A DNA stretch of 64,000 bases from Escherichia phage FL12: sequence record PP400786; one strand, 5' to 3'. Shown in pieces: positions 2,871 to 3,329 of this stretch. Made by a program: the position numbers and the translations under genes. The stretch's first letter is position 1. The number at the start of each line of letters is the position of its first letter. Under the pieces are notes generated by a model that was not told where the DNA came from, did no database searches, and saw only the letters and a list, made by a program, of their open reading frames with translations.

Positions 2871-3329
2871 TTATTTTAAATCGTCTGCCCAATCGAGTTT
2901 AAGAGGTTCTTTATATTCACGATCTAATACGACCGGAATTTGTACATCACCGCTAAATGATAAGGGCCCAACATTATAAGACAATGTTATATGCGGTGTG
3001 TAATCATCAAAATCATGTGTAGCACCTAGTGCCCGCGCATACATGTGTCGACAGCGCAGATATTCAGAATCTAGCACAAGTACAAGAGTCGATCCATCTT
3101 GTGTTTTCCATACTTCTAAATGTCCAGAAGAAGCTACTTCAAAACTTCCACTCGATGGAACATACGGAACATTTACTCTTGAATAACATATGGTCGAATG
3201 AATTTTTTCTCTAGGAACTGGATTAGGAACACGTAAAGAGCGCTGGAGTTCTTCCAGCGCGTCAAGTGTTAATTCTGAAAACTTAGCTGCTACATAAAGA
3301 CCCGTTGAAAAGTCTTTAAATTCCATCAT
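2871..3329 (-). CDS. acb1: Gene 57B product, 2H-phosphoesterase anti-CBASS nuclease Acb1
   Basis: 152 aa; two H-x-T/S motifs, IHSTI (His44) and PHITL (His113), typical of 2H phosphoesterases; sits immediately downstream of 57A as in T4. Confidence 0.8.

Follow-up and report, generated by a model that had tools for sequence, protein, structure and literature searches.

Does Escherichia phage FL12 encode an intact anti-CBASS nuclease, and does the gene for it lie within a region dedicated to counter-defence? Both questions are raised by a minus-strand ORF in the window—the 64,000 nucleotides of sequence record PP400786 that were analysed—which an earlier, sequence-only reading had taken for acb1 (gene 57B) and for the anchor of an early counter-defence block. 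The gene has a well-studied namesake: in phage T4, gene 57B was pinned down by activity-guided fractionation as the degrader of 3′3′-cGAMP, and its product (NP_049750.1) was named Acb1 (Hobbs et al. 2022, Nature 605:522, PMC9117128). In the following, the FL12 gene and its product are compared with T4 and with related systems, before turning to its transcription and to the genes that surround it. The features under discussion are collected in Table 1.

Table 1 Features at and around acb1 in the FL12 window
Feature	Position	Strand	Description and context	Basis
acb1 (gene 57B) CDS	2871..3329	minus	152 aa + TAA stop; 2H-phosphoesterase-type anti-CBASS cyclic-oligonucleotide phosphodiesterase	ORF list + sequence comparison
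gene 57A	3326..3568	minus	tail-fibre assembly chaperone, 80 aa	Pfam GP57 (PF17594) E=5e-51
ip9-like internal head protein gene	2526..2798	minus	90 aa; where T4 has ipI	phrog_7673 'internal head protein' E=4e-55
ip7 internal head protein gene	2148..2456	minus	102 aa	phrog_2667
PeSL-type cassette 1, TTTACG-N17-TACTAT	2819..2858 (pattern 2825-2858)	minus	immediately 3′ of acb1; precedes ip9-like gene	
PeSL-type cassette 2	2492-2525	minus	precedes ip7	
PeSL-type cassette 3	2102-2135	minus	precedes trna.4	
middle-promoter-like site, MotA box TTTGCTTTA, N11, TAAATT	3803..3828	minus	inside gene 1, ~235-260 nt upstream of 57A	pattern scan
late-promoter-like site, TATAAATA	3924..3931	minus	inside gene 1, upstream of 57A; same position in T4	pattern scan, consensus match only
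middle-type site, MotA box AATGCTTCA-N13-TAATCT	4344	minus	just upstream of gene 1	motif scan

Identity and integrity of acb1

The ORF is initiated by ATG and comprises 152 codons; according to the ORF list and the comparison with T4, it contains neither a frameshift nor a premature stop and reaches residue 152 untruncated. Its product is identical to T4 gp57B at all 152 residues, both in T4T (HM137666) and in NC_000866 (NP_049750.1), and UniRef lists this exact protein as ACB1_BPT4 / AAD42501.1. Hence, the alignment to T4 Acb1 by which the sequence-only reading had proposed to check its claim of a present and apparently intact acb1 bears this claim out in full. A diverged or damaged 57B is ruled out by the complete identity to T4 Acb1 and by the uninterrupted reading frame. 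On the DNA level, 7 of 459 positions differ from T4 and all seven changes are synonymous—a pattern that would be improbable by chance and that points to purifying selection.

The family assignment is equally clear. The Pfam model for the anti-CBASS protein Acb1 (PF23474) matches over its entire length (profile positions 1–144 of 144) at E=2.7e-60 and 202.7 bits, where the curated cut-off of the model lies at 27 bits. The best match among solved structures is Acb1 of Erwinia phage FBB1 (PDB 7T26/7T27; E=4e-62), with 68% identity over 142 aa (residues 9–149); otherwise, the PDB sequence search returned more distant Acb1 entries and one portal match at chance level. The identity to 7T26, together with the full-length ORF, assigns the FL12 protein the 2H-phosphoesterase fold including the C-terminal lid (residues 145–152). 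Exactly two H-x-[ST] motifs were found in the protein by a motif scan, H44-S-T46 and H113-I-T115, which are the two that had been read from the sequence before. All nine catalytic or base-contacting residues that Hobbs et al. (2022) specify are present: H44, T46, H113, T115, Y12, W74, F107, E141, and W147.

In a megablast search of 50,697 phage records, acb1 was covered to at least 80% in 554, of which 502 are at least 95% identical; nearly all of these 554 belong to T4-like phages of Escherichia, Shigella, Yersinia, and Salmonella. The Tevenvirinae synteny is likewise retained, as acb1 directly follows 57A and in turn precedes the internal-protein locus. We consider it close to certain from these comparisons that the ORF is acb1 (57B) of a T4-like Tequatrovirus, encoding an anti-CBASS enzyme identical to T4 Acb1. 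All the hallmarks of Acb1 that a sequence can show are found, and acb1 here is an already known gene in its usual genomic position. That the gene would be nothing new had been anticipated, and, indeed, its product equals the founding member of the Acb1 family.

The 57A junction and gene order

The placement of the ORF downstream of 57A, also claimed beforehand, is exact: it directly follows the GP57-matching ORF on the minus strand. The TGA stop of 57A overlaps the ATG of acb1 as ATGA (3329–3326), an arrangement that is the same in T4 and that suggests co-transcription and translational coupling of both genes. On the minus strand, the order of genes is 4, 2, 3, 1, 57A, 57B, two internal-protein genes, homologues of trna.4, trna.3, and trna.2, an ORF of 171 aa, and seven tRNA genes. 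The order in T4 is the same, but T4 has a single ipI and no 171-aa ORF. The closest records to the 5.7-kb neighbourhood are T4-like Tequatrovirus phages with ~95–98% identity; the phage is a T4-like Tequatrovirus and not T4 itself.

Several details of this neighbourhood deserve mention in their own right. The ORF of gene 1 (dNMP kinase) as called opens at a TTG at 4332 on the minus strand, while translation almost certainly begins at the ATG at 4293, behind a GAGGAG as in T4. The 171-aa ORF (702–1217, minus strand) is flanked by the trna.2 homologue and tRNA-Gln, a place at which T4 has no counterpart; it matches phrog_2290 (unknown function), and the same gene is found in phage SYGD1. In a Pfam scan, neither this ORF nor the homologues of trna.2, trna.3, and trna.4 matched any family. 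The seven-tRNA cluster ends at 44–115 (minus strand) with a gene that ARAGORN takes for tRNA-Met (anticodon CAT), where the T4 record has tRNA-Ile; probably, it encodes an isoleucine tRNA whose CAU anticodon has to be modified.

Activity expected from the T4 protein

What the FL12 protein does to CBASS is taken here from the literature on the identical T4 polypeptide, and its biochemistry and phenotype are thus predicted by analogy. Structures of FBB1 Acb1 show a compact 2H-phosphoesterase fold, whose C-terminal lid (145–152) shuts over the ligand. The bases stack against Y12, W74, F107, and W147, while the adenine N6 is read by E141. The HxT/HxT tetrad of H44, T46, H113, and T115 performs a metal-independent acid–base catalysis via a cyclic-phosphate intermediate to GpAp (all PMC9117128), and an H44A/H113A mutant has no activity (Hobbs et al. 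2022). In FL12, Acb1 would accordingly be expected to bind the messengers made by CBASS CD-NTases—3′3′-cGAMP, cUA, cAAA, and others with at least one adenosine. The 2′-OH would attack the 3′–5′ bond 3′ of an adenosine, giving a 2′,3′-cyclic phosphate intermediate and then a linear product such as GpAp. With the signal removed, CBASS effectors would stay off and abortive infection would be averted. For T4, the consequences have been described on the level of the phage: Δacb1 phages grow normally without CBASS, but lose more than 300-fold on CBASS hosts (Hobbs et al. 2022), and transposon sequencing independently found 57B depleted where the host carries CBASS, marking it as important there (HIDEN-SEQ preprint).

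Compared with known systems, T4 Acb1 (gp57B, NP_049750.1, ACB1_BPT4) is the nearest, sharing besides the protein the ATGA junction with 57A, the upstream genes 1, 3, 2, and 4, and the promoter and hairpin between 57B and the ip gene; the differences are the seven synonymous changes and, downstream, the ip9-like gene followed by ip7 in FL12 instead of ipI. FBB1 Acb1 (7T26 apo, 7T27 with 3′3′-cGAMP) has the HxT/HxT tetrad, the C-terminal lid region, and E141 in common with FL12. It is, however, an orthologue from a phage of different host range, and at the aligned positions 74 and 107 it has F and Y in place of the W and F of FL12. Apyc1, the Acb2 sponge, poxins, and Crn ring nucleases resemble Acb1 in the strategy of removing a host nucleotide second messenger. 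The degrading enzymes among them are described as structurally distinct (Hobbs et al., PMC9117128); Apyc1 is a Zn-dependent enzyme of the metallo-β-lactamase fold and Acb2 a non-enzymatic sponge. Neither the Pfam nor the PDB search gave a sequence match of the FL12 protein to any of these four groups.

Acb1 and the RNA ligase label

Public annotation suggests a different function, by which the protein would be an RNA ligase or RNA-repair 2H enzyme—a LigT-like 2′–5′ ligase or an RNA-end cyclic phosphodiesterase—and not a dedicated anti-CBASS factor. RefSeq names the 57B product 'RNA ligase' in T4 (NC_000866), in NC_015457, and in many relatives, and PHROGs describes phrog_755 in the same words. 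The proximity of acb1 to the tRNA cluster might be put forward in favour of RNA repair, and the 2H fold is common to Acb1 and LigT (Hobbs et al., PMC9117128). However, a Pfam scan at E≤0.1 returns the Acb1 family PF23474 only and no LigT or 2′,5′-RNA-ligase family, and the PDB sequence search contains no ligase match; on these searches, the annotation as 'RNA ligase' was dropped. The identical T4 protein, moreover, cleaves cyclic oligonucleotides and is needed against CBASS, and its binding pocket accommodates only cyclic di- and trinucleotides (Hobbs et al., PMC9117128). We therefore regard a role in RNA ligation or repair as very improbable; the label in RefSeq and PHROGs is outdated for the Acb1 family and at odds with published biochemistry.

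Transcription and timing

For acb1 as an anti-CBASS gene, the next matter is when it is expressed. A T4 omics supplement (PMC9697503) puts 57A and 57B in the middle class by RNA and in the late class by protein, while ipI and gene 1 fall in the early class by RNA. A preprint likewise describes the expression of 57B/acb1 as predominantly middle/late, and cGAMP-cleaving activity is seen in T4 infection from ~15 min on (Hobbs et al. 2022).

The FL12 sequence offers candidate promoters that would fit this timing. The MotA-type motif inside gene 1 (3828–3803) is identical and in the same position in T4, and might be a candidate source of a 57A–57B middle transcript—which agrees with the middle RNA class of both genes in T4. 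Over the surrounding 840 nt, FL12 is 98.8% identical to T4, with no change in the candidate promoter motifs. A generic sigma-70 scan gave 18 sites and thus fewer than the 23.4 in shuffled sequences, with none convincing directly upstream of 57B; in T4-specific motif scans, early-type PeSL cassettes near 57B occur only downstream of it. 57B has no promoter-like site of its own and would most likely be transcribed together with 57A from middle or late promoters in or upstream of gene 1, an assignment based on matches to consensus motifs. Transcription from these promoters would let Acb1 activity arise in mid-infection.

That acb1 is intact in FL12 and yet silent or dispensable, for example by not being expressed, is very improbable: the gene is non-essential on hosts without CBASS, relatives such as Bas43 carry a disrupted copy, and Panoptes selects for such disruption, but the seven out of seven synonymous differences look like purifying selection, the ATGA overlap and candidate promoter motifs are kept as in T4, and the frame bears no frameshift or premature stop.

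Internal-protein locus and counter-defence

The surroundings of acb1 are less uniform than the term early counter-defence block, under which the sequence-only reading had grouped them, would imply. For acb1 itself, the word early is a misfit, because 57A and 57B are middle RNA and late protein in T4 and the activity appears at ~15 min. Upstream, the claim of counter-defence fails for most genes: the product of 57A acts as a chaperone and that of gene 1 as dNMP kinase, and gp3, gp4, gp53, and gp5 are structural, with tail and head completion proteins among these neighbours. It stands for gp2, which by annotation protects DNA ends from exonuclease V. Downstream, it partly stands as well, as the internal-protein genes have early-promoter cassettes of their own and would fit a description as early and plausibly counter-defence genes. 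Internal proteins enter the host together with the injected DNA, and some of them at least act against its defences, as T4 IPI* does (PMC4122927). It is plausible that the internal-protein locus downstream of acb1 is a counter-defence hot spot.

This locus begins sharply. At PeSL-type cassette 1, the conserved 57A–57B unit ends on its 3′ side and the variable internal-protein locus starts. From the 57B stop to this cassette there is one difference to T4, followed by a 1-nt indel just before the start codon of the internal-protein gene. T4 and FL12 align at ~98.5% identity through 57B and across the intergenic cassette up to about codon 10 of the internal-protein gene, where homology ends abruptly—just past the N-terminus MKT(Y/F)(Q/K)EF that the first internal-protein ORF shares with T4. 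Such an abrupt end is modular cassette exchange, which is already known for the hyperplastic internal-protein locus. The proteins encoded beyond this point have close relatives in other phages: the ip9-like protein is 100% identical to its counterpart in phage VEc74 and 79% identical to 'ip9' of VR26, and Ip7 is 99% identical to RB15 Ip7 (Z35082.1) and 97% to ip7 of T2. As these two genes stand in place of ipI, the anti-GmrSD protein IPI* of T4 is not encoded at 2148–2798.

All three cassettes of the locus, each combining an early promoter with a stem-loop, fit the T4/PST PeSL consensus TTTACW-N17-TAYWAT (Comeau et al. 2014, PMC4122927). In the form GTTTAC-N14-GTGATAYTATTACC, they amount to three copies in 800 bp, where chance would give 0. 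In cassette 1, the −10 element lies within the loop of a 13-bp hairpin (ΔG −18.7 kcal/mol; z = −3.9). Weaker PeSL-type copies are found elsewhere in the window at 59372–59405 and 62388–62421, each preceding a small gene. The cassettes are likely recombination joints for the exchange of internal-protein genes.

One might go further and regard acb1 and the swappable, PeSL-flanked internal-protein cassette as one modular counter-defence island. Hereby, the internal proteins would be exchanged to match the restriction systems of the host while acb1 stays fixed, with Acb1 being also a liability as a trigger of Panoptes-type systems. This is a speculative and rather unlikely extension. If it held true, the ip9-like protein and Ip7 would be uncharacterised anti-defence factors.

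Implications

With acb1, FL12 has a wild-type gene for an anti-CBASS enzyme that is already well characterised, and the value of this finding lies in annotation and in the prediction of outcomes against CBASS and Panoptes. Panoptes guard systems restrict phages with intact acb1, and phages escape them via acb1 inactivation; natural relatives with disrupted acb1 exist, Bas43 being one of them. By analogy with T4, a phage with wild-type acb1 such as FL12 is therefore expected to withstand many CBASS systems and to be sensitive to Panoptes. Possibly, it also resists type III CRISPR signalling based on cA3, again by analogy with T4. The acb1 status of a phage might hence be useful in host-range prediction for phage therapy.
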